Shown piece by piece: positions 43,180-59,734 of a stretch of 64,000 nucleotides of DNA. The notes under the pieces are model-generated. The model made no database searches, was not told the DNA's origin, and was given only the letters and a program-made list of their open reading frames with translations. A program made the position numbers and the translations under genes. The stretch is from contig MGVC01000013.1 of the NCBI GenBank assembly GCA_001800285.1, positions 79,175-143,174 of the forward strand, read 5' to 3'. The stretch comes from Elusimicrobia bacterium RIFOXYA2_FULL_39_19. Its GTDB lineage: Bacteria; Elusimicrobiota; Endomicrobiia; CG1-02-37-114; XYA2-FULL-39-19. Position 1 is the first letter of the stretch. Every line of letters starts with the position of its first letter.

Positions 43180-44589
43180 TTAAATTACTTTGCCTGCGTG
43201 TTCTGTTGGATATACTTCAAATATTTGCGGCTTCAATTTACGTTTATTGTAATAAAGTTTTTTAATCGCTTTAATGAATTTTGTTCTGGTTCTTTTGGTG
43301 ACAAGATTTATGGTACATCCGCCAAAACCTGCACCGGTTAAACGGGATCCGAAAGCACCGTTGTTTCCAGCTATTTTTACCATTTCATTTAGTTCCGGAC
43401 AGCTGACTTCATAATCCATATCCAAACTTAAATGAGATTGATTCATAAGCTCACCTAATTTTGCCATATCACATTTTTTAAACGCTTTCGTGCTTTCTTC
43501 TACTCTTTTCCATTCAAGTAATACATGTCTGCACCGGGATTTAATCTTATAATATCCGTCATCGGACCGAAACGGCTCTCCGTTTTTGAGTTTAAGGTGT
43601 TTGGCCCGCAACTCTTCTACGGTTAGTTCAAGGCTTTGTGCTATTTCAACTTCAGTACAGGTTTCTTTCTGAAATACTTTATTAATGATTTCTTCAATTT
43701 TATTCGTTATTTTTTCAAATTTCTTAAAACGCAGGTCACCTAATTTTGTTATGGCGTACTGGGTCCCGAATTTTTCTGTTATGTATTTATTTAACATCAA
43801 TACACCAAGCCTGCATTCAAAAACTCTCATATTATAAGATTGCCTTGCGTGACCTGATTTTGGAGCAGATACCATGCTGTTGCAGGCCACAAATATCATT
43901 TCTTCCGGTACAGGGATGGATTCTACTTCCATCGGATAAAAATCTATTTTTAATGCTTTGCCTCTGTTTCCAAGTAAAGAAATGGTCTGATCCATACCTC
44001 CGCCTTGTGTTCCTACATACCATTCTCCGTCAGCAAGTATTTTTGCAAACTCCAGGCCTTTAAATTTTATTCTGTTGATATCTGCAAAAGCTACTGCATT
44101 AGCAACGATTAAAGCAGAAGATGAGCTTACCCCGGAGTTTGACGGCACATTTCCAGAAATCATGGCATTATAGCCTGTGTATTTATTTTTTGGCTTTGAG
44201 TCTACTACAAGCTGAACGGCGGCTTTCAGGTAATTTCCCCAGTCACCCGTAGTGTAGGGGTGTATCGTTTTTTCAATAATAAAATTTCTGTCCTGGAAAT
44301 TTTTTGAATCAACATTTTTATAAATTACTTCATTGTCCTTTCTTGGTGCGGCTATTATCACAATATCTTTGTCAATGGTCATGGGAAATACAGGCATACC
44401 ATTATAATCTGTGTGTTCGCCGATTATGTTTATTCTGCCCGGAGCCCTGTAAATTGAAAACCTTCCCGCTTTTGGATAGACTTTTTTAAACTGCTTTATC
44501 AGCCCTTCATAACGATTGATTGTTTTTTTTAATTCCGGGTAATGCTTTCCGTAAATTTGTTCGATACGCTTTTTCAAATTAATTGTCAT
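43180..44589 (-). CDS. galK: Galactokinase (GHMP family).
   Basis: 469 aa. The signature GRINIIGEHTDYNG is present, together with GHMP motif 2. Confidence 0.8.
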   Translation of the reverse strand: MTINLKKRIEQIYGKHYPELKKTINRYEGLIKQFKKVYPKAGRFSIYRAPGRINIIGEHTDYNGMPVFPMTIDKDIVIIAAPRKDNEVIYKNVDSKNFQDRNFIIEKTIHPYTTGDWGNYLKAAVQLVVDSKPKNKYTGYNAMISGNVPSNSGVSSSSALIVANAVAFADINRIKFKGLEFAKILADGEWYVGTQGGGMDQTISLLGNRGKALKIDFYPMEVESIPVPEEMIFVACNSMVSAPKSGHARQSYNMRVFECRLGVLMLNKYITEKFGTQYAITKLGDLRFKKFEKITNKIEEIINKVFQKETCTEVEIAQSLELTVEELRAKHLKLKNGEPFRSDDGYYKIKSRCRHVLLEWKRVEESTKAFKKCDMAKLGELMNQSHLSLDMDYEVSCPELNEMVKIAGNNGAFGSRLTGAGFGGCTINLVTKRTRTKFIKAIKKLYYNKRKLKPQIFEVYPTEHAGKVI

Positions 44590-44603
44590 AGTAATCCACC
44601 AGT

Positions 44604-45530
44604 TTATTTTTTATATTCGCCTACAAAAAATTCGACAGTTGCTTTCAATCCTTCTTCCAAACTTGAACTGGGCTTAAAACCCAGTTTTTTTATTTTGCTA
44701 TTATCTGCAAGGGAATGTTTAATATCTCCAGGTCTTTCTTTTTCATGGATTATTTTTGACTTGGAACCGGTAAGTTTAATAATTTTTTCTGCCAGTTCAT
44801 TAATAGTGATTTTTGAGCCATAGGCAACATTGTAAACGCTGTCGCCTTTTTCCGACACCAGCACATTTGCCTGAACTACGTCTTTTACATAAACAAAATC
44901 CCTTGTCTGTTCTCCGTCACCATATATTAAAATGTCTTCATTTTTGATTGCTTTTAAAATAAATATTGGCACAGCCGCCGCATACTGGGATTTTGGATTC
45001 TGCCTCGGACCGAACACATTAAAATATCTGCAACACGCACTGGGCACCCCCCACTCTTTCCGGTAAAGGGACAAATAGTATTCACCGTCAAGTTTTGTAA
45101 CAGCATAAGGGCTTTTTGGCTCGGGAAGCATGGTTTCAACTTTCGGCATAACCGGATTATCACCATAAACCGCCGCAGATGAAGACAATACTATTTTCTT
45201 TACAGTTCCTGATTCTTTGGCAGCTTTTATCAGATTTATTGTTCCAATAGCGTTTAGGTTTATGCATTCAACGGGTTCAAAAATGCTTTCAGGTACGCTT
45301 ATCATAGCAGCCAGATGAAATACATAATCCACGCCTTTCATGGCATTTACGCAGGCCTTATAATCCGTTATGCTTTCTTCTATAAACTCTACACCAAACT
45401 TTTCTATGTTTTTTTTAAACCCTGACCTCAGGTTATCCATTACGGCTACTTTTGTATCCGCTTTGTTTGAAAAATGTTCTACAATATGACTCCCGATAAA
45501 TCCAGCACCGCCTGTTACAAGTACTTTCAT
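44604..45530 (-). CDS. galE: NAD-dependent sugar epimerase (UDP-hexose 4-epimerase, GalE-like).
   Basis: 308 aa. MKVLVTGGAGFIGSH Rossmann motif and YxxxK (YAVTK) are present. Confidence 0.7.
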   Translation of the reverse strand: MKVLVTGGAGFIGSHIVEHFSNKADTKVAVMDNLRSGFKKNIEKFGVEFIEESITDYKACVNAMKGVDYVFHLAAMISVPESIFEPVECINLNAIGTINLIKAAKESGTVKKIVLSSSAAVYGDNPVMPKVETMLPEPKSPYAVTKLDGEYYLSLYRKEWGVPSACCRYFNVFGPRQNPKSQYAAAVPIFILKAIKNEDILIYGDGEQTRDFVYVKDVVQANVLVSEKGDSVYNVAYGSKITINELAEKIIKLTGSKSKIIHEKERPGDIKHSLADNSKIKKLGFKPSSSLEEGLKATVEFFVGEYKK

Positions 45531-45546
45531 TGGTATTCTCCCTGTA

Positions 45547-46746
45547 TTATATTTTTTTTAATTCATCTCTTATAAATTTAAACTCTTCCAATGGTGCAGA
45601 GGTATCTTTAATTAAATGACAGTAATCTGCATAAGTAATTCTTTTGAAAGTTGACAAATCCGACGTGCTTCCCCTTCCGGCTGTTTCAACAGAAGCAGGA
45701 ACTATGATAAATTCGTTTTTTTCGCTTTCATTTTTTGCATTATAGGCATTCATATCTTTCGGAAATGTATCTGATTTCCATTTCCATTTTGGAAGCACAA
45801 ACACTCTGGCAATATCGCCTTTTCTTGCAAAGATCAGATAAAACGGCACAAACCGGTCAATTTCTTTCACTTGACGACTGTCGCATAATTCCATAATTTT
45901 ATTCACCAGCAAAGAAACTCTTTTTTTATCATTACCTTCTACCACAAAACCGGTAGCCGGGTATGACGGGTCAAATTCACTGACTCCGGTATTTCCAATA
46001 GCCACAGTTTTAATATTTTCTATAGGAAAGGTGCCGCTGAAAGCCTGCACGTGCCGGTGCTTATCTAATGAACCGGGCCTGTTAAAATACGGCCTGCAGA
46101 AATCAAACATAAAATTCAAATCAATAATATCTTCCATAAACTGCCGGTCCATAGACTGCAAACCGTGTTTTTTATAAGTTACCATAAGGTGGTTTTCTAC
46201 AATTGGCGCATGATTGCCGAATAAATAATAATCTCTCCAGAACCATACCTTTTTGTTTGTGTTAATGAAGGACTGGTAACAAATTGGGCAGCTGTCTACG
46301 TACTCATTTTTGTTGTGTACAACTGTAGAACTTCGTTTTCTTGCGGAATTGCAGTAAATCACAAAGTCTCCGGGTGACAGTACCTTTGACTGCACCTTAG
46401 CTAAGGATTCACCGTCAATCTTTTTTTCAATTATCTGGTGGCGTATAAGGGCGAACATTATATCCTGAAGGCTAAAATTATCTGCAATGATGCGGGTCTT
46501 AAACAAATCATCCTTTGTCCCCATCGCAGGGTTTCCGGCCATTTCAAGCGCAAATTCTAAATTATTTACAATATCGGATTCTTCTATTGTATCTTTCAGA
46601 GTAACAGTCAGCAGGTTATCCAGCGCTTTTGGTGCGCTCAGGTTAAATTCATTGAACTTCACAGATAACTTTTCAGCCAGCTGATAAATTTTAGAACCTG
46701 TCTTTATACCGTGTTTTGAAACAATTTCAATAATTTGTTTATCCAT
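45547..46746 (-). CDS. galT: Putative galactose-1-phosphate uridylyltransferase, family 2 (Gram-positive type).
   Basis: 399 aa. CPICYQ...WFWRDYYLFGNHAPIVENHLMVTYKKH resembles the type 2 GalT motifs CQLC...YAYFNEHSILLNAKH. The Leloir-pathway neighbours (galE-like, galK) support the call. Confidence 0.45.
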   Translation of the reverse strand: MDKQIIEIVSKHGIKTGSKIYQLAEKLSVKFNEFNLSAPKALDNLLTVTLKDTIEESDIVNNLEFALEMAGNPAMGTKDDLFKTRIIADNFSLQDIMFALIRHQIIEKKIDGESLAKVQSKVLSPGDFVIYCNSARKRSSTVVHNKNEYVDSCPICYQSFINTNKKVWFWRDYYLFGNHAPIVENHLMVTYKKHGLQSMDRQFMEDIIDLNFMFDFCRPYFNRPGSLDKHRHVQAFSGTFPIENIKTVAIGNTGVSEFDPSYPATGFVVEGNDKKRVSLLVNKIMELCDSRQVKEIDRFVPFYLIFARKGDIARVFVLPKWKWKSDTFPKDMNAYNAKNESEKNEFIIVPASVETAGRGSTSDLSTFKRITYADYCHLIKDTSAPLEEFKFIRDELKKI

Positions 46747-48795: not shown

Positions 48796-49842
48796 ATGAA
48801 ATACAAAGGCATTTTTAAAACATTTGATAACTCAAAAATCAGAACCTACCCGCTAAACAAAAGAAAAAGCAAGGTCTCCCTGGAATTTGCCGTTGACTGC
48901 AAACATTTAGCTAAACAAAAAATTACCCATCCCAACAAAGACATTGAAAAAATAGCATTAGGAGTAATAAAAGCCCGCAAACAAAACAAACCCGTCATAA
49001 TAATGTCAGGCGCACATCTGGTAAAAAATGGTTTATCACCCATTATTGTTGATTTGATGGAAAAAAGACTGATTACCCTATTTGCTACCAACGTTGCATC
49101 CTCTATTCACAGTTTTGAATTATCTCTCATAGGCCAGTCCAGTGAAAATGTAGCGAAAGGCCTGCCTAAAGGCGAATTCGGTATGGCGTTTGAAACCGGA
49201 ATGTATTTAAACCAGACACTTATTGAAGGGCTGAAAGCAGGTATTGGATTTGGTGAATCCATGGGCCGGCTTTATGGTGACAAAAAATTTAGAAAAAAAG
49301 TTATTGATAATGCTTTAAAAAATGAAAAGAATACCGATAACTACTATAAACCTTACGGCGCTTTCCGTTTTGCGGACAGCTGTATTTTTGCAAAAGCTTT
49401 TGAACTCAAAATCCCTGTTACTGTACACGCTTCTTTAGGCACTGATATAATTGACCAGCACAGAAACTTCAACGGCAGAGCCAAAGGTGAAACCAGCGGA
49501 AAAGACTTTCTCATTTTCGCTAACGAAATCACCAAACTTACCCATGGCGGTGTAATAATAAACATCGGCTCTGCGGTTATGGGCCCGGAAGTACTGCTTA
49601 AAGCGGTATCTATGGCGGCTAATACTGGCAAAGTTCCAAACAAAATAATCACTGCAGATTTTGACTTACGCCCTTTCGGTAATAATGCTGCTGATGAAAA
49701 AAAATATCCCTACTATTTTCGCGACCAGAAAAGCATAGTAAATAGAATACCGGAAAGTTACCACGGTACCGGCTACTACATACAGGGCAACCAGAAAGAA
49801 ACTGTCCCTTCCTTTTATAAGTACATAATCAGTCATTTCTGA
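48796..49842 (+). CDS. Deoxyhypusine-synthase-like (DHS/homospermidine-synthase fold) protein.
   Basis: 348 aa. Several segments align by eye to DHS: [27 protein letters not shown] against [43 protein letters not shown] against [27 protein letters not shown] against MIILGGGVVKH. A partial arginase-like SxDxD pattern (TADFDLRP) was considered and rejected. No search was run. Confidence 0.4.
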   Translation: [348 protein letters not shown]

Positions 49843-49945
49843 CACCCCCTCTGTTATACAATTATTGATTTTTCTACTGATTATTGCTTTAATAGTAGAC
49901 AAGTTTTAAAAAAACACAAAACTATACCAATCTTGAGGAGGAGCA

Positions 49946-51349
49946 ATGGCAAAAGAATATGCATTAAAAGTAAAAAAAATCAAAAAGGTAAACACACCAT
50001 TTAGAAAAATGGTAACACCGGAATTTCCCGTAAAACAGTCTGTAGCTATAATTGAAAAACTAAGAAAATACGAGCCCCGGTCTATGTCAGGCCAGCCGCT
50101 GGCACTGTGGGACCACGCAGACGGCATTAACGTGTTTGATAAATACGGCAATAAATGGCTGGACTGGAGCTCCGGCGTATTGGTAACCAACGCAGGCCAC
50201 TCTAACCCGGAAATAAAAAAAGCCATTATCAAACAGGTAAACAAAGGATTACTGCATAACTATTGTTTCCCGTCAGAACTAAGAGCTATATTAACTGAAA
50301 AAATAGCTAAATTAGCACCTGCACCGCTAAAAAAAGTATTTTTACTTACCACCGGAGCAGAAACCACTGAAGCTGCAGTAAAACTGGCAAGAACCTATGG
50401 GGCAAAAGAAGGCGGATCAGATAAAATAACCATAGTTTCTTTTTCCGGCGCATTTCACGGCAGAACCATGGGTGCCCAGATGATAGGTGGCTCACCGGAT
50501 TTGAAAAAATGGATAGTAAACCTTGACAAAGATATGGTACAGGCACCTTTCCCGTTTTGTTTCCGCTGCCCCTGGGGTAAAGACAAATATAACAACTGTG
50601 ATACAGAGTGTTTCGGCAAGTTTATAAATTTTCTGAAAGAAAAAAACATAGATCCTAAAAAGAATCTGGCGGGTGTAATATCTGAAACGTATCAGGGCGG
50701 CAATGCCATGTTTATGCCGAAAAAATTTGCCCAACTGTTAAGAAGTTTCTGTACTGAAAACAACGCTCTGCTAATATTTGACGAAGTACAGGCGGGATTT
50801 GGCAGAACAGGCAAAATGTTTGGCTTTCAGCACTATGACGTAGTGCCGGACATCACCTGCTGCGGTAAAGGCATATCAAGCTCACTGCCTATATCTGCTG
50901 TAATAGGCCGCGCTGACGTAATGGACATTTATGAACCAAACACCATGACCAGTACCCATACCGGCAACCCAGTATGTGCAGTAGCCGCCATTGCCAGCAT
51001 AGACTACATAGTAAAACACAAACTTACCCAGAACGCTGCAAAAGTAGGCAAATACCTTGAAAAAGAATTAATGAAAATTGCCGCTAAATATCCGTCCATT
51101 ATTGGGCACGTGTCCGGCAAAGGACTGGTTTACAGCTTACATATAGTAAAACCCGGCTCTAAAGAAACTAACGCAGACCTGGCACATGATATAGTAGGCA
51201 AATGTGTAGAAAAAGGATTGATGGTATTTGCACCTGTAGGGACGGGCAGCGCATCTTTTAAAATATCGCCCCCGTTAATTGCCACAGAAGCTTCCATAAA
51301 AGACGGCATACAAGCCGTGGATGAAGCCATTGCTGAATGCCTGGCCTAA
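49946..51349 (+). CDS. PLP-dependent class III aminotransferase (omega-amine:oxo-acid type).
   Basis: 467 aa. The motif DEVQAGFGRTGKMFG contains the PLP lysine, and SFSGAFHGRT is present. An unusual Cys4 insertion (FPFCFRCPWGKDKYNNCDTEC) is also present. A strong RBS (GGAGGAG) precedes the start. Confidence 0.8.
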   Translation: MAKEYALKVKKIKKVNTPFRKMVTPEFPVKQSVAIIEKLRKYEPRSMSGQPLALWDHADGINVFDKYGNKWLDWSSGVLVTNAGHSNPEIKKAIIKQVNKGLLHNYCFPSELRAILTEKIAKLAPAPLKKVFLLTTGAETTEAAVKLARTYGAKEGGSDKITIVSFSGAFHGRTMGAQMIGGSPDLKKWIVNLDKDMVQAPFPFCFRCPWGKDKYNNCDTECFGKFINFLKEKNIDPKKNLAGVISETYQGGNAMFMPKKFAQLLRSFCTENNALLIFDEVQAGFGRTGKMFGFQHYDVVPDITCCGKGISSSLPISAVIGRADVMDIYEPNTMTSTHTGNPVCAVAAIASIDYIVKHKLTQNAAKVGKYLEKELMKIAAKYPSIIGHVSGKGLVYSLHIVKPGSKETNADLAHDIVGKCVEKGLMVFAPVGTGSASFKISPPLIATEASIKDGIQAVDEAIAECLA

Positions 51350-51560
51350 GAATTGAAGCACCCGCCTTCGCAGGCGTGGATTCTAACTTTATTTTCATCG
51401 CAGCAAAAACCCTACGCTGAAATACCCGGAGCGGACTTAATCGCTATACATCCATGCCTTTACCGGGCAGGTATCCAGTATCATTTTATAAAAGGAAGAA
51501 ACTGGATAGACACGGATTTCCGCGAAGGGTGTTAAATACAAAATATAAGTAATAGCAACA

Positions 51561-51594
51561 AAAAAAGCGCCCTTTAAAAGGCGCTTTTTTTTGA
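51561..51594. terminator. Bidirectional rho-independent terminator.
   Basis: The sequence is AAAAAAA-GCGCC-CTTTAAAA-GGCGC-TTTTTTTTT. It sits between the convergent aminotransferase (+) and tkt (-) genes. Confidence 0.7.
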
Positions 51595-51613: not shown

Positions 51614-53647
51614 TTATTTCTTTTTTGCGGCAACTATTTTTCTGGCTCTTTCCACAAAAAACTCAGCTGTTAAACCAAATATTTTCATCAGTTCCCATGG
51701 CTGGCCGGAATCTCCGAAGGTATCGTTTATGCCTATCATGTCCATTAAAAGAGGCGTTTTGTATTTTTTGTTGCGTGCAATAGCACCCGCTATTATATTG
51801 CCCAATCCGCCTGCCTGATGCTCTTCTGCGGTAACAATAGCACCTGTTTCTTCTGCGGCTTTTAGTATAGCCTTTACATCAAGCGGCTTTACTGTATGAA
51901 CATTAAGGACTCTGGCTTCTATTTTAAACTGTTCCTTTAATATCCAGGCTGCGCGCATAGCTTCAGGCACCATAGGTCCGCAGGCTATTATAGTAAGCTG
52001 TTCTTTCTCTGATTTATATTTTTCTGCCAGTTTAATTTCAAAGGCATCTACAAATTTCTCCGTAACTTTTCTAAAACGGATTACATTGGCCTTGCCGAAA
52101 ACAAACGGGGTGTCTTTTTTGGTGGCTATGGGTGTGGCTTCCCTGGCATACCTGATGCATGACGGGCCTTTTACTATTGCCATGGCATGGGTAGCTTTTT
52201 CTGTTTCAATGGAATCACAAGGAACGGTTAAGGTCATTTTGGGAAGGTACGCCATAAGAGCTATTTCTTCCAGTGCCTGGTGCGTGGCGCCATCCTGCCC
52301 TACGGATATGCCCGCATGGGCTGATGCTATTTTTACGTTAAGGTCGTTATAACAGAGAGTTGTTCTTATCTGGTCCCAGTTTCTGCCGGTTACAAATACA
52401 CCGTAGGAACCAATAAATGCTGTCTTGCCTTCTTTTGCCAGGCCTGCGGCTACTACCGTCATATTCTGTTCTGCAATACCCATGCTGAAAAAACGGTTTT
52501 TTCTTTCGGGATGGTTCTTATAGAAATCATCCATTTTGATTGATGAAGTAATGTCTGACCCGTGGGCTACTACATTTTTATCTTCCCCTATTATTTCCAG
52601 GGCTTTGCCAAAACCGAATCTGGTAGGTTCCATATCCACTTTCATCATTGGATCTGCGTTCCACCAGTAATTCTTTTTAAACTTCGGCAGTTTGGCTTCA
52701 ACTTTTTTATTTACGCCTTTCTGGTAATTTTCTACACTTGCAAAGATGGCATCCAGCCTTTCTTTTGGAAATTTGTCTGCTATGCCTATGCTTTTCAGCG
52801 CGCTTTCTAAAGATTCGTCGCCGCATCTGCCGTGTTTCGGAGGCACACCATGATAACCTGCTACGTTTTCCGCGTAACAAATACCTTTGCCTTTTACCGT
52901 TTCAAATATTATCACGGTGGGCTGGCCTTTGACGGTTTTTGCTTGTTCAAAAGCTTCTACAATTTTTTGCATATCATGGCCGTTAGTTACTATTACATTC
53001 CAGCCAAATGATTTATATTTATCTTCAAGCGGTTCTACGTTCATTACATCTGCTACTTTGCCGTCTATCTGCAGTTTGTTGCGATCAAGGATGCCTACCA
53101 GGTTATCAAGTTTGTAATGAGCTGCAGACATTACTGATTCCCAAATAGAACCTTCCTGCTGTTCGCCGTCACCCATGATGCAGTAAACCCTGTAATCCTG
53201 TTTTTCCAGTTTTGCGTTTATGGCGCTTCCTACGGCAACACCTAAACCCTGGCCCAGGGACCCGCTGGATAATTCAATTCCAGGCAGCTTGAATCTATTG
53301 GGATGGCCTTCAAAACCTGACCATAATCTTCTAAGTTTTGCTGTTTCTTCTATATTGTAATAACCTGCCGCGCCCAATGCCACGTACAATGCCGGAGCTT
53401 TGTGGCCGGTAGACCAGAAAGTTCTGTCTCTGTCTTCCCATATTGGATTTTCCGGATCGTGCTTCATAATTTTAAGGTATAAAGCTGCCGTGATATCCAT
53501 AATGGACATGGTACCGCCGGTGTGACCTGATTTTGCCAGAGTGATACCTATCATGTTCCACGCACGCATTTCTTTTGATTTTTCAATCAGTTCGCTGATT
53601 GAGTAGTCTTTTCTTACTTCACTCGTCTTTGAGTTGATTAATGACAT
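51614..53647 (-). CDS. tkt: Transketolase (single-chain).
   Basis: 677 aa. TPP-binding motifs GHTGGTMS and GDGEQQEG are present, with a C-terminal Tkt domain. Confidence 0.85.
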   Translation of the reverse strand: MSLINSKTSEVRKDYSISELIEKSKEMRAWNMIGITLAKSGHTGGTMSIMDITAALYLKIMKHDPENPIWEDRDRTFWSTGHKAPALYVALGAAGYYNIEETAKLRRLWSGFEGHPNRFKLPGIELSSGSLGQGLGVAVGSAINAKLEKQDYRVYCIMGDGEQQEGSIWESVMSAAHYKLDNLVGILDRNKLQIDGKVADVMNVEPLEDKYKSFGWNVIVTNGHDMQKIVEAFEQAKTVKGQPTVIIFETVKGKGICYAENVAGYHGVPPKHGRCGDESLESALKSIGIADKFPKERLDAIFASVENYQKGVNKKVEAKLPKFKKNYWWNADPMMKVDMEPTRFGFGKALEIIGEDKNVVAHGSDITSSIKMDDFYKNHPERKNRFFSMGIAEQNMTVVAAGLAKEGKTAFIGSYGVFVTGRNWDQIRTTLCYNDLNVKIASAHAGISVGQDGATHQALEEIALMAYLPKMTLTVPCDSIETEKATHAMAIVKGPSCIRYAREATPIATKKDTPFVFGKANVIRFRKVTEKFVDAFEIKLAEKYKSEKEQLTIIACGPMVPEAMRAAWILKEQFKIEARVLNVHTVKPLDVKAILKAAEETGAIVTAEEHQAGGLGNIIAGAIARNKKYKTPLLMDMIGINDTFGDSGQPWELMKIFGLTAEFFVERARKIVAAKKK

Positions 53648-53704
53648 TGACTGTGTTCTCCTATTTAATTTAATGTTTTAAGCAGCCGTTGCGGCCTGCG
53701 TTAT

Positions 53705-54097
53705 TTATGCTTTTTCTATGGATACTTTTGCGCCTGATTTAACTTTTAAAAAATCTTTCGGGTTGCCTAAAAGTTTCCCAACTACGTTTACGGCACTGGC
53801 CGGCCTTATTTCATCACCCGTGCTGGCTGGCGTTTTACCGAAAAAAATGCAGAATGCGTTTCCCGGGGGCCAATAGGCTATATCACCGCAATTTACTACT
53901 TCACAGCCGTTTTCTTCACCTACATGTACTGGAATAGAAAAATAGATTTCTTCCCCCCAGGTGTTTCCTTTGGCATTTATGGCTAAAGCTTCATAAATTG
54001 CCTGCGCAGTTTTTGAATCATTCAATTCTGCAAGCATAGATACTTCACCAGCAGTGATTTTGATTTTGTTTCCAATTGTTATCACAGATTGGACCAA
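53705..54097 (-). CDS. Small conserved hypothetical protein, tentatively cyclophilin-like fold (PF04126-like).
   Basis: 130 aa, beta-rich, with no signal peptide. Motifs GDIAYWPPGNAFCIFFG. The assignment is from memory of Thermotoga-type cyclophilin-like proteins and is weak. Confidence 0.3.
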   Translation of the reverse strand: MVQSVITIGNKIKITAGEVSMLAELNDSKTAQAIYEALAINAKGNTWGEEIYFSIPVHVGEENGCEVVNCGDIAYWPPGNAFCIFFGKTPASTGDEIRPASAVNVVGKLLGNPKDFLKVKSGAKVSIEKA

Positions 54098-54999
54098 GCT
54101 TCTCTAAGCACTCTTTTTGAGTTTGCAATAAGCACTTCAGAGTTTTCACCCGGCAGAGGTTTCACTTCAAAACTTACTATGGGCAGGTTATCTGTTTTTT
54201 TGCCCAGGTAGCCGATATCAAAAAGGCATTTTAAAAATTCCGTAAGTTCTTTTACGCCATTTTCACCGGTAGATATACCAAATCTGGGGTGCTGATCACC
54301 ATAGCCTGTCATAGCTTTATCCTTCATTATACAGTTACCCATGTGGATGTGAACAAGGTAATCTTTTACAGCGGTCAATGACTGCTTTGGTGTTTCGTTA
54401 AGTAACGGCATATGGCTTAAATCTACCATCAGTCCGAAATTTTTGCAGGTTTTTCTTACTTCTTTGGCTATTTTCACAGCTTCATCTGAGGGGCCAATAA
54501 GAGCTTTTTTGTCTATGTCACGGTCAAAAGTTTCAAGCACAAAATTAAGGTTTTTTGTCTGGGCATAATTTGAAAGTTCTACAAGAGATTCTACCAAGGC
54601 TTTTTTGGCTTCTTCTCTTTTTTCAGGGCCCGGGTCTGCTCCGCTAAGGATGGCTACAGCTTTTGCGCCGAGTTCTGAAGCTTCATTTATTCTTTCTTTT
54701 AAAAATTCCACTACTTTCTTTCTTTCTGCCTGGTCCAGGGAATTTACGTTATATTTATTTACAAGCAAAGTGGGCTGGGCTCCGTAAGCCACGGTTAAAT
54801 GGCTCTGCTCCAGCAATTCCTTGGCTTTTTTTCTTACTTCTGCGTCTTTCATCCAGGAAATTTCAATGGCTGAGAAAAAATCATCTTTGCAGATTTTTTC
54901 CAGTGTTTCAAGGATTGGGCCTTCACCCTTCATTGTTTCAGGGTAAATCATGAAGTGGATTATGCCTACTTTCATGTAATCGTGAATTGAATCTTTCAT
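54082..54999 (-). CDS. Sugar-phosphate isomerase/epimerase of the xylose-isomerase-like TIM-barrel family (ketose 3-epimerase / UlaE-like).
   Basis: 305 aa. TIM-barrel-like periodicity, with acidic and His residues in the expected positions (...LETFDRD..., ...VDLSHMP...). Confidence 0.45.
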   Translation of the reverse strand: MKDSIHDYMKVGIIHFMIYPETMKGEGPILETLEKICKDDFFSAIEISWMKDAEVRKKAKELLEQSHLTVAYGAQPTLLVNKYNVNSLDQAERKKVVEFLKERINEASELGAKAVAILSGADPGPEKREEAKKALVESLVELSNYAQTKNLNFVLETFDRDIDKKALIGPSDEAVKIAKEVRKTCKNFGLMVDLSHMPLLNETPKQSLTAVKDYLVHIHMGNCIMKDKAMTGYGDQHPRFGISTGENGVKELTEFLKCLFDIGYLGKKTDNLPIVSFEVKPLPGENSEVLIANSKRVLREAWSNL

Positions 55000-55018
55000 T
55001 TACTTCCTCCTGTTTTGG

Positions 55019-55525
55019 TTATTTTGAGTATGTTAATGCCAGGTTAAACTCTTCATTGCTTACTACTTTTACTTCTGTTCTGCCTGTATCTTCATTAAAA
55101 TAATCTACTGCTCGGTGTAAATACTCTAACGAATGACTGTTTTCTATTTCATCGTTAATTATGGTTACTGCACCTAAAACATAAAACAAAATGCCTTCTG
55201 ACTCAGCTCTGGTTATTCTGCTTCTTTCTGCAGGGTCATATGTACCGCTTTCATTATATCTGTTATAAGCATAAGAACCCATAAGTATGCCTATAAACCA
55301 GCCACCGCCGTGTTCCCGATATAAACACATCTGCTCCAGCGCTCTGGGTGATTTACTGGCGGTTAAAGCTTTGAATTCTTTGATAGTGTATTCTGTACCG
55401 TCAACACTGACGCGGTAAGTTTTAAAAAACTTTGGCGCTATTACATAGGCCTTGTTTGTTTCTGTCTGGGCTATTACTGTAAACATTGAAAGTAAAACGG
55501 TTAAAAGCAGTGATTTCTTTAACAT
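55019..55525 (-). CDS. Secreted hypothetical protein.
   Basis: 168 aa. N-terminal signal peptide MLKKSLLLTVLLSMFTVIAQT. No recognisable motif. Confidence 0.4.
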   Translation of the reverse strand: MLKKSLLLTVLLSMFTVIAQTETNKAYVIAPKFFKTYRVSVDGTEYTIKEFKALTASKSPRALEQMCLYREHGGGWFIGILMGSYAYNRYNESGTYDPAERSRITRAESEGILFYVLGAVTIINDEIENSHSLEYLHRAVDYFNEDTGRTEVKVVSNEEFNLALTYSK

Positions 55526-55526
55526 C

Positions 55527-56699
55527 TTATCCTTCTGTATGAAGTTTTATGTGTTTTTTAAATATCTCATAATGTTCTGCTGAATTATTTTTTAACACTT
55601 CATAACAGCCGTCAAAGTATTTATCTACCGTTAATATTGAACCGTAGGTGACATGCAGTGCCTGCCTTAAATCACCGTTGCCGGTTTTTGAATCCATTAA
55701 ATTGAATATTTCTTCTCCTTTAAGTTTGGAAATATCAGGAATATTTGCAACGTTGGTGGTAAGTTCATAGCTGGCGCGGTCTTTTTCAAACTGTTTCATG
55801 GAAATAGCGTATATTTCCTTGAAAAGGTCCGGATTATGTTTGGCTACAAGGCGTAATTCCTCCAGATAGTAGGTACCGGCAGATTTTAAGTGATAGTTTC
55901 CCTTTGTGTGCTTTGAAAGAATAGGATAAATAGAAAATTTGTCACTTCCTGAGTGCACGCATAAACGGACACCGAAGTCATTTAATATTTTAAGTATTTC
56001 TTTCAGGTAGGTTTCAAACTCATCCAGTTTTTTATCGTTTTTCTTCTGCAGGTAATAATCTATGGCTTTTTCAAAGTACCCGGGAAACCTGGGGGCCAGC
56101 TCATCAACGCGGATATTACGTTTTTTAAGTTCTTCCAGCGCAAAGCTAACTTCATCAAATTTTGTGGTGTATTCGGTTTCATCAAAAGACACTTCTACGC
56201 TGAAATCTGCGCCTTTTTTCAGCTCTTCGGTTAGTTTTATAAGTTTGGTAAGTTGTTCAACCGCTTCCTTAATACTTTTTTTAAGCTCATTTGAAACATC
56301 ATAAGTAAAATGTGTACAACCACCGGCTACCGCCATTTTAATATGCTCTTCTGTTTTCAAATGGTCGCCATCTGCGGACCAGGGAAGCGTAAGATTGGCA
56401 GTATAAGAGGAATAGGTACCCAGGTCAATTACGTTTTCATAGGTGCGGTTGGTTCTCTCCAGTTCTCTGGCAGATTGCTGGGCCAATACTACCTGCACGC
56501 CAAGTTCTTTGGCGGCTTTTGCCTGCATAACATTGCCAAGGCCGTAAGCGCACCGGTACCCGGTACCAAAGACAAAACCTTTTCTGATAACAGACGGGTT
56601 GGTGTTTTTATGGTTTTTGCGCAATTCTACAGCTTCTTCGTGTGTAACAGGAACCTTATTGCTGGTTTTCAAGTTCTTCTCCCAGTAAATTAAAATCAC
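55527..56699 (-). CDS. GatZ/KbaZ/UxaE-family protein (tagatose-6-phosphate 4-epimerase or tagaturonate epimerase-like).
   Basis: 390 aa. The family assignment is from overall similarity recalled from GatZ/UxaE-type proteins (...HSGSDKFSIYPIL...). The start is uncertain because the ORF overlaps the upstream gene by 44 bp. Confidence 0.35.
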   Translation of the reverse strand: MILIYWEKNLKTSNKVPVTHEEAVELRKNHKNTNPSVIRKGFVFGTGYRCAYGLGNVMQAKAAKELGVQVVLAQQSARELERTNRTYENVIDLGTYSSYTANLTLPWSADGDHLKTEEHIKMAVAGGCTHFTYDVSNELKKSIKEAVEQLTKLIKLTEELKKGADFSVEVSFDETEYTTKFDEVSFALEELKKRNIRVDELAPRFPGYFEKAIDYYLQKKNDKKLDEFETYLKEILKILNDFGVRLCVHSGSDKFSIYPILSKHTKGNYHLKSAGTYYLEELRLVAKHNPDLFKEIYAISMKQFEKDRASYELTTNVANIPDISKLKGEEIFNLMDSKTGNGDLRQALHVTYGSILTVDKYFDGCYEVLKNNSAEHYEIFKKHIKLHTEG

Positions 56700-58701
56700 C
56701 TATAAAACCGGTTCTTATGGCATTTTTTTCTGCTTCAGTTGCCGGAAAGGCATCTACCACTTTTGCAAACAAGGTCTGCTGCGCAAACGCATGGCTTGCC
56801 AGTTTATCTGCGGTAATACCTTTTGAACCGTAAGGCTGTTTATAAATGTCAAAGAAAATCAAAACCTGCTTTAGCGCTTCATCTACTTCATATGCCTGGG
56901 CAAATTCTTCTGCAATAATTGAACTGTAAAGCTGTTCAATCATGGTTTTATTTACTTTTTTTTCTACATTTTTTCTGTTAATTTTCATTTCTTTCCAGAG
57001 TTCTATGTTGAGCGCGCAATCCGGGAAGTGGCCCTGGGAGAACATGCCAAGCAAACCTTCAACGTGAGGAAATCTGTTGCCGTACGGAGGCCTCATGGAT
57101 GCCTGCAAGTCGCCGGTTTCCCATTCCTGCACACCCTGTTTTTTCATTATGGGTGATTTTTTAAGGGCTGTCATTATCTTGTGTGACCTTTTGGATATGG
57201 CTTCCGCTATGGTGCAAATGGCCAGGTCCTGCGGAAAAAGTTTGCCTTCGTGGTTTTCATATTCTGCCGGAGTTATTTCTTCCGGAAGTATCAGGCCGGC
57301 CTCTTTGGCAAGTTTTCTTGCTTCAGGGGCATCTAAAGTACCGTTTTTCTTATTATCAATTTTCATTACTTCTTCAGCTTTTGCGGTGTTGCCCTGTTTT
57401 TTATAAACATCGGCAAGTTTCTGTATGGCATACCATCTTAATGCGGCTTCTATACGGCCGCCCATTTTGGTGATAATAGAATGGGTGATTAACAGGCCTT
57501 TCTTGCGGGCTTTGGCGTGGCCTCTTAACTGGCAGAAAAATGAATACAGGCCGTCTGTCATAAAACCGGCTACGGTAACATTGTTATTAGCACCTTCTGC
57601 CATAACCTGTTCCATGGCACTGCCTGAATCCCCTTCGGCTAAATCAAAATTGCCTTTTTTTACCTGTTCTACCATCAATTTATCTACATCCCCGTAAACG
57701 GATTTTGCTGAGCCGTCAACTTTGTAAAATACGTGGGACTGGCCTTTTCTGGCTTTTATTTCTTCCGGGGTTAAGGTATCTTCAAGGAATAAACCGGAAT
57801 CATATTTCATACATTCATCATTGAATTCTTTGTGAAGGGTTAAAATATCGCTTTTAAGTTTTTCCGGCTGATTGTAAGTTCTGGGGTTTACCTGAAAACT
57901 GATTTTGCCTTTTTCTGTAAGTAAAAATACCGCTCTCTGCGCTAAACGGGCTTTATAACCGGCTATTTTTGTGGCACCGCGTACCAGTTCTTCGCGGGAT
58001 AGCTTTCCTTTATTATCAAGGGCAAACTGTCTTTTCATGGCCTGAAGCACATCATCTTCTGCTAAAGCCAAGCGGGCCAGTGTAGGGTTCATCATAACCA
58101 GGTCTGCACCCCAAAGGATACGCGCTTCTATAATGCCTAAACCGTAATCTACACCTACTATCATATTAGCTTTTTCTTTGATTTTTCTAAGGTTGGATTT
58201 TTTGCCGAATTTGGCCCAGAATTTAATCCAGGCTTTTACGGAGGTGGCTTCAATTTCTTTGGATTTTTCTGCCAACAGGCCTTTACCGGCCGAGGCCATA
58301 ATTCTGCCCATACGGGTTTTTTCCTTATTAAGCAGGCCGGACATAACATTTTTATGTTTTGCTTCAAGTTTTTTAAGGAGTTTGTAAAGGTTTCTTACTT
58401 CTGGTTTGAGCACTTTGTCCGGAACGATATTGTTTTTATGCCTTTCTTCGTTTTGCAAGTTAAGAGTAAGTTCGTAAGAGCCATCAAGAGCCATGGTAAC
58501 CCAGATAAGGAAAAGAAATACTTTCTCTTTTTCTTCTTCTGTATAACCGGATATTTCGGAAACTATTGTTTCCTGGATTTCTTTGATTCTTGCAGGAAAA
58601 TCCTTGGGGTTGGTAAAACACGTTACATTGTCAAATGCCTGTGCCTGTGAAAACAAATCACCTTTTGCCTGGTCAACAATTTTTCTTACTTTTGGATCCA
58701 T
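56656..58701 (-). CDS. Long transaldolase-family protein with about 190-aa N-terminal and about 200-aa C-terminal extensions.
   Basis: The core aligns by eye to TalB. IVGVDYGLG...GADLVMMNPTLARLA matches VVADTGD...DATTNPSLILNA. GKISFQVNPRTYNQ matches GRISTEVDARLSYD. VFYKVDGS matches ILIKLAST, the Schiff-base Lys region. ...IITKMGGRIEAALRWY matches ISPFVGRILDWY. Strong RBS AAAGGAGAACG. Confidence 0.5.
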   Translation of the reverse strand: MDPKVRKIVDQAKGDLFSQAQAFDNVTCFTNPKDFPARIKEIQETIVSEISGYTEEEKEKVFLFLIWVTMALDGSYELTLNLQNEERHKNNIVPDKVLKPEVRNLYKLLKKLEAKHKNVMSGLLNKEKTRMGRIMASAGKGLLAEKSKEIEATSVKAWIKFWAKFGKKSNLRKIKEKANMIVGVDYGLGIIEARILWGADLVMMNPTLARLALAEDDVLQAMKRQFALDNKGKLSREELVRGATKIAGYKARLAQRAVFLLTEKGKISFQVNPRTYNQPEKLKSDILTLHKEFNDECMKYDSGLFLEDTLTPEEIKARKGQSHVFYKVDGSAKSVYGDVDKLMVEQVKKGNFDLAEGDSGSAMEQVMAEGANNNVTVAGFMTDGLYSFFCQLRGHAKARKKGLLITHSIITKMGGRIEAALRWYAIQKLADVYKKQGNTAKAEEVMKIDNKKNGTLDAPEARKLAKEAGLILPEEITPAEYENHEGKLFPQDLAICTIAEAISKRSHKIMTALKKSPIMKKQGVQEWETGDLQASMRPPYGNRFPHVEGLLGMFSQGHFPDCALNIELWKEMKINRKNVEKKVNKTMIEQLYSSIIAEEFAQAYEVDEALKQVLIFFDIYKQPYGSKGITADKLASHAFAQQTLFAKVVDAFPATEAEKNAIRTGFIGDFNLLGEELENQQ

Positions 58702-58887
58702 TTACGTTCTCCTTTATTATTAGTTTCAAATTCTCTTACTTTTGCTTCATAGCAACTGCTGATTTTTTTTGGCTATGAAATGGATAATTTTTGTTATTGT
58801 GCTGGAAGGACTAAATACTACTATTTTATTTAATTTTTGTCAAAATGTTTTAATTAATGTGTTAAAAAGCTCGGAAAATGAACTTTT

Positions 58888-59226
58888 TTACAATTTTTTG
58901 CATTTTTCTCTTTTCAAAATTGCCGTTTTTGCTTTAATCCCGCCAGTTCCAGAATACCCGCCTATCTCTCCGTTTGATTTTATTACTCTATGGCAGGGAA
59001 TGACAGGTGCAAAAGGATTTTTTGCCAGAGCAGTTCCCACCGCACGGTATGCCTTAGCCCGGGCAATCTGGCGGGCTATCCATTTATAAGATTTTGTCTG
59101 CCCTTTTGGTATTTTCAGGCATGCCAACCATACCTTTTGCTGAAATTCGGTGTATTTCTTGATTTTTTTTAGTACTACGGAAAGTTCATTCATTGAAAAA
59201 GTACATATATCCGGTAGAATCTTCAA
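58888..59226 (-). CDS. ogt: Methylated-DNA--protein-cysteine methyltransferase (short Ogt, active-site domain only).
   Basis: The active-site motif IPCHRVI is present. Confidence 0.7.
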   Translation of the reverse strand: MKILPDICTFSMNELSVVLKKIKKYTEFQQKVWLACLKIPKGQTKSYKWIARQIARAKAYRAVGTALAKNPFAPVIPCHRVIKSNGEIGGYSGTGGIKAKTAILKREKCKKL

Positions 59227-59734
59227 AAGAATAGATTTTTTTGCGTTGTATAAAATTATTTCTTTTATATTGCTTATAATACTTTTTTACTAATTTCACG
59301 TAATTTGCTGTTTCTTTATAAGGAGGTATGCCGTCATACCGGTTTACGGCGCCTAACCCGGCATTATAAGCGGCAATCGCGTAGTCCAGGTCACCGTTAT
59401 ATACTGCTATAAGTATGGATAAATGCCTGGTGCCTGCGCCGATATTTTCGTGCGGGTCAAAAGCGTTGCGGACCCCCTGCATTTTCAGCACGCCCGGCAT
59501 TAACTGCATAAGGCCTTTTGCCCCTTTGCAGGAAACGCTTTTGTGGTAAAAGTTTGACTCTACCTTTATAAGCGCTTTTACCAGAAACGGGTCAACACGG
59601 TTTCTGTGGCTGTGAAAAAGAATGATATCATCATACTTAGATTCAGAGCTGTTTTTTTTGCTTTTTGCGCAGATATCACTGGCATCACTGATAAAAAGAA
59701 AAAAGGTTAATAGTAAAAGGGCAGTTTTTTTCAT
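59186..59734 (-). CDS. Soluble lytic transglycosylase (SLT-domain) protein.
   Basis: 182 aa with a signal peptide. The SLT catalytic motif ESNFYHKSVSCKGAKGLMQLMP is present. Confidence 0.7.
   Translation of the reverse strand: MKKTALLLLTFFLFISDASDICAKSKKNSSESKYDDIILFHSHRNRVDPFLVKALIKVESNFYHKSVSCKGAKGLMQLMPGVLKMQGVRNAFDPHENIGAGTRHLSILIAVYNGDLDYAIAAYNAGLGAVNRYDGIPPYKETANYVKLVKKYYKQYKRNNFIQRKKIYSFEDSTGYMYFFNE

Follow-up and report, generated by a model that had tools for sequence, protein, structure and literature searches.

A conserved operon setting for a very divergent, putative transaldolase-fold enzyme in an Elusimicrobia genome

What would a bacterium do with an operon that pairs a putative transaldolase of unusual length with a ketose epimerase, a xylose-isomerase-fold enzyme and a transketolase? 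The question is raised by six minus-strand open reading frames (ORFs) at positions 51614-58701 of a 64-kb stretch of contig MGVC01000013.1 (the window). The product of the first gene has the same sequence (100% identity) as a hypothetical protein in the metagenome-assembled genome "Elusimicrobia bacterium RIFOXYA2_FULL_39_19", from groundwater. An earlier note, made from the sequence alone, had read the operon as a route that funnels a rare sugar into the non-oxidative pentose phosphate pathway. Our results support this in part, and suggest that the operon is a conserved setting for a very divergent transaldolase (Tal)-type enzyme. The six tightly spaced ORFs were all found where the note had placed them:

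56656-58701, minus strand: gene 1, Tal-like ORF of 681 aa
55527-56699, minus strand: gene 2, UxaE-type ORF, 390 aa counted from the first GTG
55019-55525, minus strand: gene 3, ORF of 168 aa (p168)
54082-54999, minus strand: gene 4, AP_endonuc_2 ORF of 305 aa
53705-54097, minus strand: gene 5, cyclophilin-like ORF of 130 aa
51614-53647, minus strand: gene 6, transketolase (Tkt) ORF of 677 aa

Going from gene 1 to gene 6, the first pair overlaps by 17 nt (by 44 nt from the GTG start), the next two pairs are 1 and 19 nt apart, the fourth pair overlaps by 16 nt and the last is 57 nt apart. The 17-nt figure is the overlap of the UxaE-type gene with the stop of the Tal-like gene if translation begins at TTG 56672, the likely start, as in the deposited UxaE-like protein (381 aa), with GGGAG in front. 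The arrangement is beyond chance, since the gene order is kept in related Elusimicrobia (loci L001/L023 and L009, below) and the first three conserved families, Tal-like, UxaE and AP_endonuc_2, co-occur in other phyla.

We asked whether the first product is a transaldolase at all, as the label "long Tal" had proposed. No Pfam or NCBIfam model matched it at E <= 0.01, PF00923 included, and PDB sequences gave no match, either by phmmer or with a profile of the family. The AlphaFold2 model, built with 13 homologues, reached a predicted local distance difference test score (pLDDT) of 83.8 and a predicted TM score (pTM) of 0.85; it has the (beta/alpha)8 barrel fold of the Tal type, and its best 15 Foldseek matches were all transaldolases. 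By hhalign, the direct comparison of the family with TalB was marginal (probability 23%) and that with fructose-6-phosphate aldolase (FSA) unsuccessful, so that a bridge was needed. It was provided by the weaker relatives in the profile search, proteins of ~580-725 aa that match PF00923. The extended 681-aa family aligned with the ~580-aa group over the full length (hhalign probability 100%, E 1.9e-52), and P0060, from this group, aligns directly to TalB from E96 through K132 to N154. Fold and profile bridge together thus back the label, even though no curated profile detects the protein. The alignment chain gives the following equivalences between the 681-aa protein and TalB:

D185: TalB D17
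N205: TalB N35
Q270: TalB E96
K327: TalB K132 (Schiff base)
N374 / T376: TalB N154 / T156
M413: TalB F178
R416: TalB R181
S535 / R537: TalB S226 / R228

K327 is aligned to the lysine in VVFKLPGT of P0060, itself aligned to TalB K132. Judged by these alignments, the strand-4 Schiff-base lysine (K327) and the strand-1 catalytic aspartate (D185) appear to be present, and the Arg/Ser/Arg site corresponds to the one that binds phosphate in TalB. The catalytic residue set, including D185, K327 and this anion site, is kept in 25 of the 26 family members. The Glu and Phe of classical transaldolases (E96, Phe178) are replaced: the first position holds an invariant glutamine (Q270), as Q59 does in FSA, and M413 occupies the place of Phe178 in Tal and Tyr131 in FSA. 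The predicted set is neither that of a classical Tal (Glu/Phe) nor that of a classical FSA (Gln/Tyr). Residues ~1-175 form an N-terminal helical domain, followed by a Tal-type barrel with large insertions and by a helical C-terminal region of ~240 residues. Considering the profile-bridge chain and the residue equivalences to TalB, we assign the protein to the Tal/FSA superfamily as an enzyme of new architecture and, judged by sequence and model, to a putatively new and very divergent Tal/FSA-fold family.

This family is very rare: an exhaustive profile search retrieved 51 relatives in 1.84 billion representatives, and the family makes up 14 clusters in 5.8 billion proteins. Its outlier is P0013 (685 aa), with K327N, R416G, S535W and R537C, which may be a pseudo-enzyme or a paralogue with a different function. 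The ~580-aa "long Tal-like" family (P0031, P0035, P0037, P0039, P0046, P0054, P0060 and P0061) shares the N-terminal helical domain and the Gln-for-Glu change and still matches PF00923; by alignment it appears to link the 681-aa family to classical transaldolases.

We also looked for the genes that accompany the Tal-like gene elsewhere. Metagenome and genome scans added six loci; three duplicate loci already collected. The gene orders are as follows, where T is the Tal-like gene, U the short UxaE gene and A the AP_endonuc_2 gene:

Window (Elusimicrobia): T-U-p168-A-cyclophilin-Tkt
L001/L023 (Elusimicrobiota): ABC-T-U-A-Tkt
L009/L022 (Elusimicrobia): T-(scaffold gap)-p168-A-Tkt
L010/L011 (Ca. 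Hakubella, Actinomycetota): T-U-A-2-hydroxyacid dehydrogenase; downstream IolB, another AP_endonuc_2 gene and a sugar ABC permease gene
L007: T-U-A
L006: T-A-2-hydroxyacid dehydrogenase, no UxaE gene adjoining the Tal-like gene
L002: T-U-MFS; a beta-galactosidase gene also in the locus
L003: T-U
L004/L012: T adjoining a LarA-type hydroxyacid epimerase gene

Where the Tal-like and UxaE genes occur together (window, L001, L002, L003, L007 and L011), they overlap in every case, by 1-23 nt, and this overlap spans at least two phyla (Elusimicrobia and Actinomycetota). Six loci (L001, L006, L007, L009, L010 and L011) carry an AP_endonuc_2 orthologue (51-88% identity) downstream of the Tal-like gene. 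The conserved core consists of the Tal-like gene, the short UxaE gene and one AP_endonuc_2 orthologue, with Tkt outside it. At the operon position after AP_endonuc_2, Elusimicrobia carry Tkt, and L010/L011 and L006 carry a 2-hydroxyacid dehydrogenase of the glyoxylate/hydroxypyruvate-reductase type; with the glyoxylate reductase NCBIfam (cutoff 455), those of L011 and L006 reach 423 and 401 bits, well above their scores with the phosphoglycerate dehydrogenase model. Because Tkt lies outside the core, and Elusimicrobia are the only lineage in which it is linked to the Tal-like gene, the idea that a rare sugar flows into the non-oxidative pentose phosphate pathway has partial support only. The lack of a kinase gene, also noticed earlier, holds for all Tal-like operons examined. 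L009 had seemed to show that UxaE is dispensable, an argument we dropped: a run of N (L009:4240-4252) separates the Tal-like gene from the p168 homologue, exactly at the place expected for UxaE, so that the apparent lack of both the UxaE gene and the p168 signal peptide in L009 is probably an assembly artefact.

The sixth product is a transketolase, as had been proposed: it scores 614.9 bits against NF004559 (cutoff 488) and matches human TKT (E 2.6e-91), being of the human/split type. All of H37, H77, H110, H258, R318, S345, H416, D424 and R474 of human TKT, its catalytic and phosphate-binding residues, are matched. A Tal-fold enzyme next to a canonical Tkt, with synteny kept in three Elusimicrobia and housekeeping genes all around, could suggest a plain operon of the non-oxidative pentose phosphate pathway, where the 681-aa protein would be a divergent housekeeping transaldolase working with Tkt and the two barrel enzymes would be passengers or stand-ins for Rpe/Rpi. 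We regard this as quite improbable. Outside Elusimicrobia the Tal-like gene never adjoins Tkt but adjoins UxaE and AP_endonuc_2, the catalytic Glu of Tal has become Gln and Phe178 has become Met, and a family so rare and patchy is unlikely to fill a housekeeping role.

Two small proteins embedded in the operon had also been pointed out. The 130-aa product is cyclophilin-like as described, matching PF04126, the TM1367 family (E 7.9e-44, 148.8 bits against 27; TM1367 in the PDB, 2.3e-30); tblastn found no match to its gene in the related Tal-like loci, so among the loci examined it is confined to the window operon. The p168 product matched nothing in Pfam, NCBIfam or PHROGs, and its single-sequence AlphaFold2 model was unusable (pLDDT 41). 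Its N-terminus is hydrophobic and resembles a signal peptide, which agrees with the proposed secretion, although on the basis of hydropathy only. It is 50% identical to an ORF at the same operon position in L009, and is lineage-specific. Both small genes do belong to the operon, but neither is a conserved part of it, as both are missing from L001, whose Tal-like protein is 79% identical.

The second gene had been called GatZ/UxaE-like, and the UxaE half of that name stands. PF16257 is the sole Pfam match at E <= 0.01 (E 1.8e-92, 311 bits against a gathering score of 27.1) and UxaE sequences in the PDB match at 2.6e-60 to 9e-53, while a GatZ/KbaZ identity was ruled out by the lack of a PF08013 match. 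UxaE is a family of ketose C4 epimerases with a retro-aldol mechanism. The glutamate of QQSxRE and the aspartate of DGDH are kept in the window protein in alignments to 6il9 and 9lhw. A catalytic Glu (E126) and Asp (D159) were assigned in the Cohnella laeviribosi enzyme of this family (PMC11194214), and we mapped them onto the window protein by counting, with an offset of one. The architecture departs from that of the full-length enzymes (~480-510 aa): with 381-390 aa, the window protein matches PF16257 in two stretches, and lacks ~70 N-terminal residues as well as the internal insert (chain residues ~207 to 243) of the 490-507-aa enzymes. It falls in a short subfamily (375-400 aa, 47-56% identity) that is separated by a score gap from the characterised ~500-aa enzymes and was seen in Verrucomicrobia, Lentisphaerae, Kiritimatiellia and Elusimicrobia. 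Two further members, in L013 (8001-9158) and L015 (8001-9167), are 49-50% identical to the window protein and adjoin dciA and a lytic transglycosylase gene, outside any sugar operon.

The fourth product matches PF01261 (AP_endonuc_2; E 3.9e-23, 82.9 bits against a gathering score of 31.1), in line with the xylose-isomerase-like TIM barrel that had been predicted; on profile search neither barrel protein thus fell into an unrelated family (PF16257 and PF01261). All NCBIfam equivalog cutoffs are missed: IolO, the best match (1.5e-16), reached 60.6 bits against a cutoff of 300, psicose 3-epimerase 44.9 against 300, hydroxypyruvate isomerase 34.7 against 353 and L-ribulose-5-phosphate 3-epimerase 22 against 317. 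The best PDB match is D-tagatose 3-epimerase, with TM0416 also among the PDB matches.

Taken together, the sequences point to a Tal/FSA active site of the Schiff-base type that includes an anion pocket and is genetically coupled to a putative ketose C4 epimerase and a xylose-isomerase-fold enzyme. We asked which substrate would suit this combination. Starting from the observed folds, families, conserved catalytic residues and gene linkage, we put first a kinase-free route, all of whose substrates and products are putative, that would cut the C3-C4 bond of a ketose with an anionic tail, likeliest D-tagaturonate/D-fructuronate; we hold this as a real possibility that falls somewhat short of a probable one. 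The short UxaE-type enzyme would epimerise tagaturonate to fructuronate, thereby giving the D-threo configuration at C3/C4 that Tal-type enzymes require. The Tal-like enzyme would form a Schiff base through K327, cleave C3-C4 and transfer dihydroxyacetone to glyceraldehyde-3-phosphate, yielding fructose-6-phosphate and leaving tartronate semialdehyde, in parallel with sulfofructose transaldolase. The AP_endonuc_2 enzyme would isomerise tartronate semialdehyde to hydroxypyruvate. In Elusimicrobia, Tkt might use hydroxypyruvate as a decarboxylating donor, giving xylulose-5-phosphate and CO2, or might merely rebalance sugar phosphates; in the other lineages the dehydrogenase of the glyoxylate/hydroxypyruvate-reductase type would produce glycerate.

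We prefer the keto-uronate route because four of the five partner families act on carboxylates, as judged by characterised members, and because no operon kinase is present. The carboxylate-type families are UxaE, the IolO/Hyi-like AP_endonuc_2 proteins, the glyoxylate/hydroxypyruvate reductases, and the neighbouring IolB and LarA types. Epimerisation of tagaturonate/fructuronate is the only natural activity known for the UxaE family (PMC11194214, PDB names and the family description), and the best curated matches of the AP_endonuc_2 partner act on keto-uronates (IolO, PMC12632266) or hydroxypyruvate. Acid-sugar neighbours (IolB, the second AP_endonuc_2 and the sugar ABC permease in Ca. Hakubella; the LarA type in L004) argue in the same direction, as do the overlap of the Tal-like and UxaE genes, the recurrent AP_endonuc_2 orthologue and the lack of kinases. 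The most specific clues, which are circumstantial, are the alternation of Tkt and reductase at one operon position and the protein P0017, a fusion of a 2-hydroxyacid dehydrogenase, a PfkB kinase and the Tal-like module. Transketolase accepts hydroxypyruvate as a decarboxylating donor in vitro, and the swap between Tkt and reductase fits hydroxypyruvate since both enzyme types can use it. Of the substrates listed in the earlier note, the hexuronate option is favoured by partner families and contexts, the ketohexoses and pentuloses less so.

The genomic surroundings of the AP_endonuc_2 protein were also considered. Its 304-aa subfamily is widespread and very conserved, with 62-66% identity to proteins of TA06, Atribacterota and Nitrospinota. 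Three contexts (among L016-L020) were sampled: a GntR/FCD regulator gene, the AP_endonuc_2 gene and a sugar ABC gene; FCD, AP_endonuc_2, a 2-hydroxyacid dehydrogenase and DcuC; and AP_endonuc_2, a GarL-like aldolase, a 2-hydroxyacid dehydrogenase and TRAP. GarL makes tartronate semialdehyde. These contexts have an organic-acid flavour, which speaks for the keto-uronate route. They also bear on a variant of it, where the AP_endonuc_2 protein, as an IolO/LguG-type enzyme, would act first and, as in the inositol pathway of Thermotoga, make D-tagaturonate from 5-keto-L-gluconate before UxaE; the Tal-like enzyme would still cleave fructuronate, and no dedicated isomerase would be involved in handling the three-carbon acid. 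Among NCBIfam models the protein matches IolO best, TM0416 is among its PDB matches, IolB and a second AP_endonuc_2 gene lie near the cluster in Ca. Hakubella, and the conversion between 5-keto-L-gluconate and tagaturonate, on which UxaE acts, is catalysed in both directions by IolO/LguG enzymes (PMC12632266). The IolO score is nonetheless far below its cutoff, and the subfamily keeps its 62-66% identity in phyla that have no Tal-like gene, with 2-hydroxyacid dehydrogenases and acid transporters beside it in two of the three sampled contexts; a small common metabolite would explain this better than a rare keto-uronate. Moreover, L006 retains the AP_endonuc_2 gene with no UxaE gene beside the Tal-like gene. 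We consider the IolO-first order improbable.

A different view of the module comes from giant proteins of 2000-4400 aa (P0017-P0024), in which a Tal-like module of ~700 residues with the same catalytic residues is embedded. One of them, P0020, is annotated as Omnitrophota, and one giant ORF was confirmed to be open on its contig (L008:10001-18634), where three giant genes (3599, 2877 and 1431 aa) stand side by side. Pfam gave no match to the module in these proteins, and hidden Markov models of the two subfamilies found no UxaE or AP_endonuc_2 domain in them. The fusion partners are hexokinase and PGI in P0023, GlpX FBPase, canonical Tal and class II FBA in P0021, PGM in P0019 and GlmS-like domains in P0024; glutamate-dehydrogenase-type and HEAT domains also occur. 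Glycolytic domains in such giant proteins were reported earlier (bioRxiv 10.1101/2023.11.21.568195; 10.64898/2026.06.07.730766).

These partners suggest a phosphosugar route, which is the main rival and essentially the ketohexose reading of the earlier note. UxaE would be a ketose-phosphate 4-epimerase, for example from tagatose-6-phosphate to fructose-6-phosphate, the AP_endonuc_2 protein a ketose or ketose-phosphate 3-epimerase, and the Tal-like protein a transaldolase or FSA-type aldolase for fructose-6-phosphate or sedoheptulose-7-phosphate, working with Tkt. Besides the giants, it would account for the match between the Arg/Ser/Arg site and the TalB phosphate site, for the canonical Tkt, for D-tagatose 3-epimerase as the best PDB match of the AP_endonuc_2 protein and for the sugar-type neighbours, namely the upstream ABC genes of L001, which are of the CUT1 type, the beta-galactosidase of L002 and, in the window, GalK-/GalE-like genes 5-8 kb off. 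It does not account for the lack of a kinase in every operon or for the terminal dehydrogenase outside Elusimicrobia, which has no obvious phosphosugar substrate; P0021 carries a canonical Tal beside the Tal-like module, so the two are probably not redundant, and we know of no natural UxaE-family member that acts on sugar phosphates. We judge the phosphosugar route rather unlikely, and nearly as likely as the keto-uronate route.

Several observations weigh against the keto-uronate route itself. The phosphosugar enzymes fused in the giants (hexokinase, PGI, GlpX, Tal, FBA and PGM) are one of them, and the fully canonical Tkt, with its phosphate-binding residues intact, is another. The anion site alone would suit a carboxylate, a phosphate or a sulfonate indistinguishably. 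The AP_endonuc_2 protein scores low with the hydroxypyruvate isomerase model, its subfamily contexts amount to three sampled cases, and the short UxaE genes in the two further sampled contexts (L013 and L015) are solitary among housekeeping genes. The ORF scan, which covered part of the window, revealed no gene for uronate isomerase, pectinase or another step of hexuronate entry. Finally, we know of no case of hydroxypyruvate as a physiological Tkt donor.

As for the signals of the operon, three elements were located:

58815..58843, minus strand: promoter-like site, TTGACA (58843-58838), 17-nt spacer, TAGTAT (58820-58815); 10/12 matches
58709..58714, minus strand: ribosome-binding site AAGGAG, 7 nt before ATG 58701, read directly
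51560..51591, both strands: bidirectional intrinsic-terminator-like hairpin, AAAAAAAGCGCC-TTTTAAA-GGGCGCTTTTTTT

The ribosome-binding site at the operon head is as strong as had been described, and the bidirectional terminator at its end was likewise recovered, as a symmetric, GC-rich hairpin of 14 bp with an A run and a T run on its flanks, 22 nt past the Tkt stop. The -35 element TTGACA is there too, one base from the position first given, and the site is consistent with a promoter of the operon; such sites, however, are not above the shuffled expectation (18 in the sequence against 17.8 expected from shuffled sequence). Because these matches are not enriched, only gene arrangement, ribosome-binding site and terminator carry weight. 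A riboswitch or known RNA in the leader or 3' region was ruled out: no Rfam family matched the whole window at gathering score, permissive Rfam scans of it returned terminator-like noise only, and the leader fold is not unusually stable (z = -0.39).

Among the flanking genes, a GSU2086-family protein gene (NF052581, above cutoff) and a class III aminotransferase gene (48796-51349, plus strand) converge on the operon terminator. The pair holds the same position in L001/L023, and the aminotransferase is also found in L009; the ~210 nt from the aminotransferase stop (51349) to the terminator (51560) hold no ORF and no Rfam match. Just upstream of the promoter region (58888-59734, minus strand) lie a 112-aa ORF with a PCHRV motif, which by eye resembles a methylated-DNA-protein-cysteine methyltransferase, and a 182-aa lytic-transglycosylase-like ORF; UvrC-like and MurJ-like genes come next, and UvrC is also upstream of the operon in L009. 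The minus-strand stretch 43180-46746 holds a small cluster of the sugar-nucleotide or galactose type, with genes for a GalK-like GHMP kinase (469 aa), a GalE-like NAD epimerase (308 aa) and a DUF4922 protein (399 aa). Farther off, a 1510-aa ORF with no Pfam match (25529-30061, minus strand) stands directly upstream of a BamA/Omp85 gene (23250-25586).

From these data, a large stretch of Omnitrophota-type giant proteins that had carried no annotation gains a fold and a probable chemistry, and two partner subfamilies stand out as having no assigned substrate, the short UxaE and the 304-aa AP_endonuc_2. The Tal/FSA superfamily is small, well studied and widely used in biocatalysis; a clade of about double length with an unusual Gln/Met set would widen the range of its sequences and mechanisms. 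Should the keto-uronate reading prove right, it would provide a kinase-free path from pectin- or inositol-derived acids to fructose-6-phosphate. Taken to its full extent, as an ATP-free "uronate transaldolase" pathway in which the Tal-like module moves the dihydroxyacetone half of fructuronate to glyceraldehyde-3-phosphate, hydroxypyruvate goes to Tkt or a reductase and the module is also catalytic in the giants, the proposal is doubtful. It would be a new catabolic principle for hexuronates and the first physiological role for the hydroxypyruvate-transketolase reaction; our literature search found no published description of such a Tal-type keto-uronate cleavage.

How does this system compare with known ones? 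With respect to Tal/FSA enzymes (PF00923; TalB and FsaA of E. coli, Tal of N. gonorrhoeae, PDB 3clm), the 681-aa protein is about twice as long, by virtue of the ~175-residue N-terminal helical domain, large loop insertions and the ~240-residue C-terminal region. It is missed by PF00923 and all NCBIfam models, has no PDB sequence match, carries Met at the Phe178/Tyr131 place, and its gene is translationally coupled to a UxaE-type gene.

In its proposed logic, the route would resemble the sulfo-TAL pathway (Bacillus, Firmicutes; PDB 8bc3), where a Tal-family enzyme acts on a fructose analogue with a non-phosphate anion at C6, dihydroxyacetone passes to glyceraldehyde-3-phosphate to give fructose-6-phosphate, and an acidic three-carbon aldehyde goes to a dedicated enzyme, all kinase-free. 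Unlike here, the sulfo-TAL enzyme is small (~220 aa), canonical and accompanied by sulfoquinovose-specific operon genes; in our operons the accompanying enzymes are UxaE and AP_endonuc_2 with either Tkt or a hydroxyacid dehydrogenase, and the putative substrate is a carboxylate. In a sulfosugar reading, the Tal-like enzyme would itself be a 6-deoxy-6-sulfofructose transaldolase analogue, its partners processing sulfonated three-carbon products. We hold this to be very improbable: none of the loci showed a gene for a sulfoquinovosidase, a sulfoquinovose isomerase, a sulfolactaldehyde reductase/dehydrogenase or a sulfonate exporter, and UxaE has no role in known sulfoglycolysis.

The hexuronate/inositol network of Thermotoga maritima, with IolO followed by UxaE, likewise brings AP_endonuc_2 and UxaE-family epimerases together, there on keto-uronates. 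Its fructuronate proceeds through UxuB, UxuA, KdgK and KdgA, whereas none of these is linked here and the Tal-like enzyme stands in their place; in addition, UxaE is 381-393 aa here against ~480-507, and the AP_endonuc_2 protein is far below the IolO cutoff. The glyoxylate/glycerate branch (E. coli gcl-hyi-glxR) also pairs an AP_endonuc_2-fold isomerase with a tartronate semialdehyde/hydroxypyruvate reductase, and the L011/L006 dehydrogenase is of the glyoxylate-reductase type. Our AP_endonuc_2 protein differs in being no orthologue of Hyi (34.7 against 353 bits), and in our proposal tartronate semialdehyde would arise from Tal-type cleavage instead of from glyoxylate carboligase or GarL. Finally, the Omnitrophota giant proteins ("Archaeovorins", bioRxiv 10.1101/2023.11.21.568195) share the ~700-residue module and its catalytic residues; there the module is fused to glycolytic/gluconeogenic domains, whereas in our operon, a small one, it forms a protein of its own.

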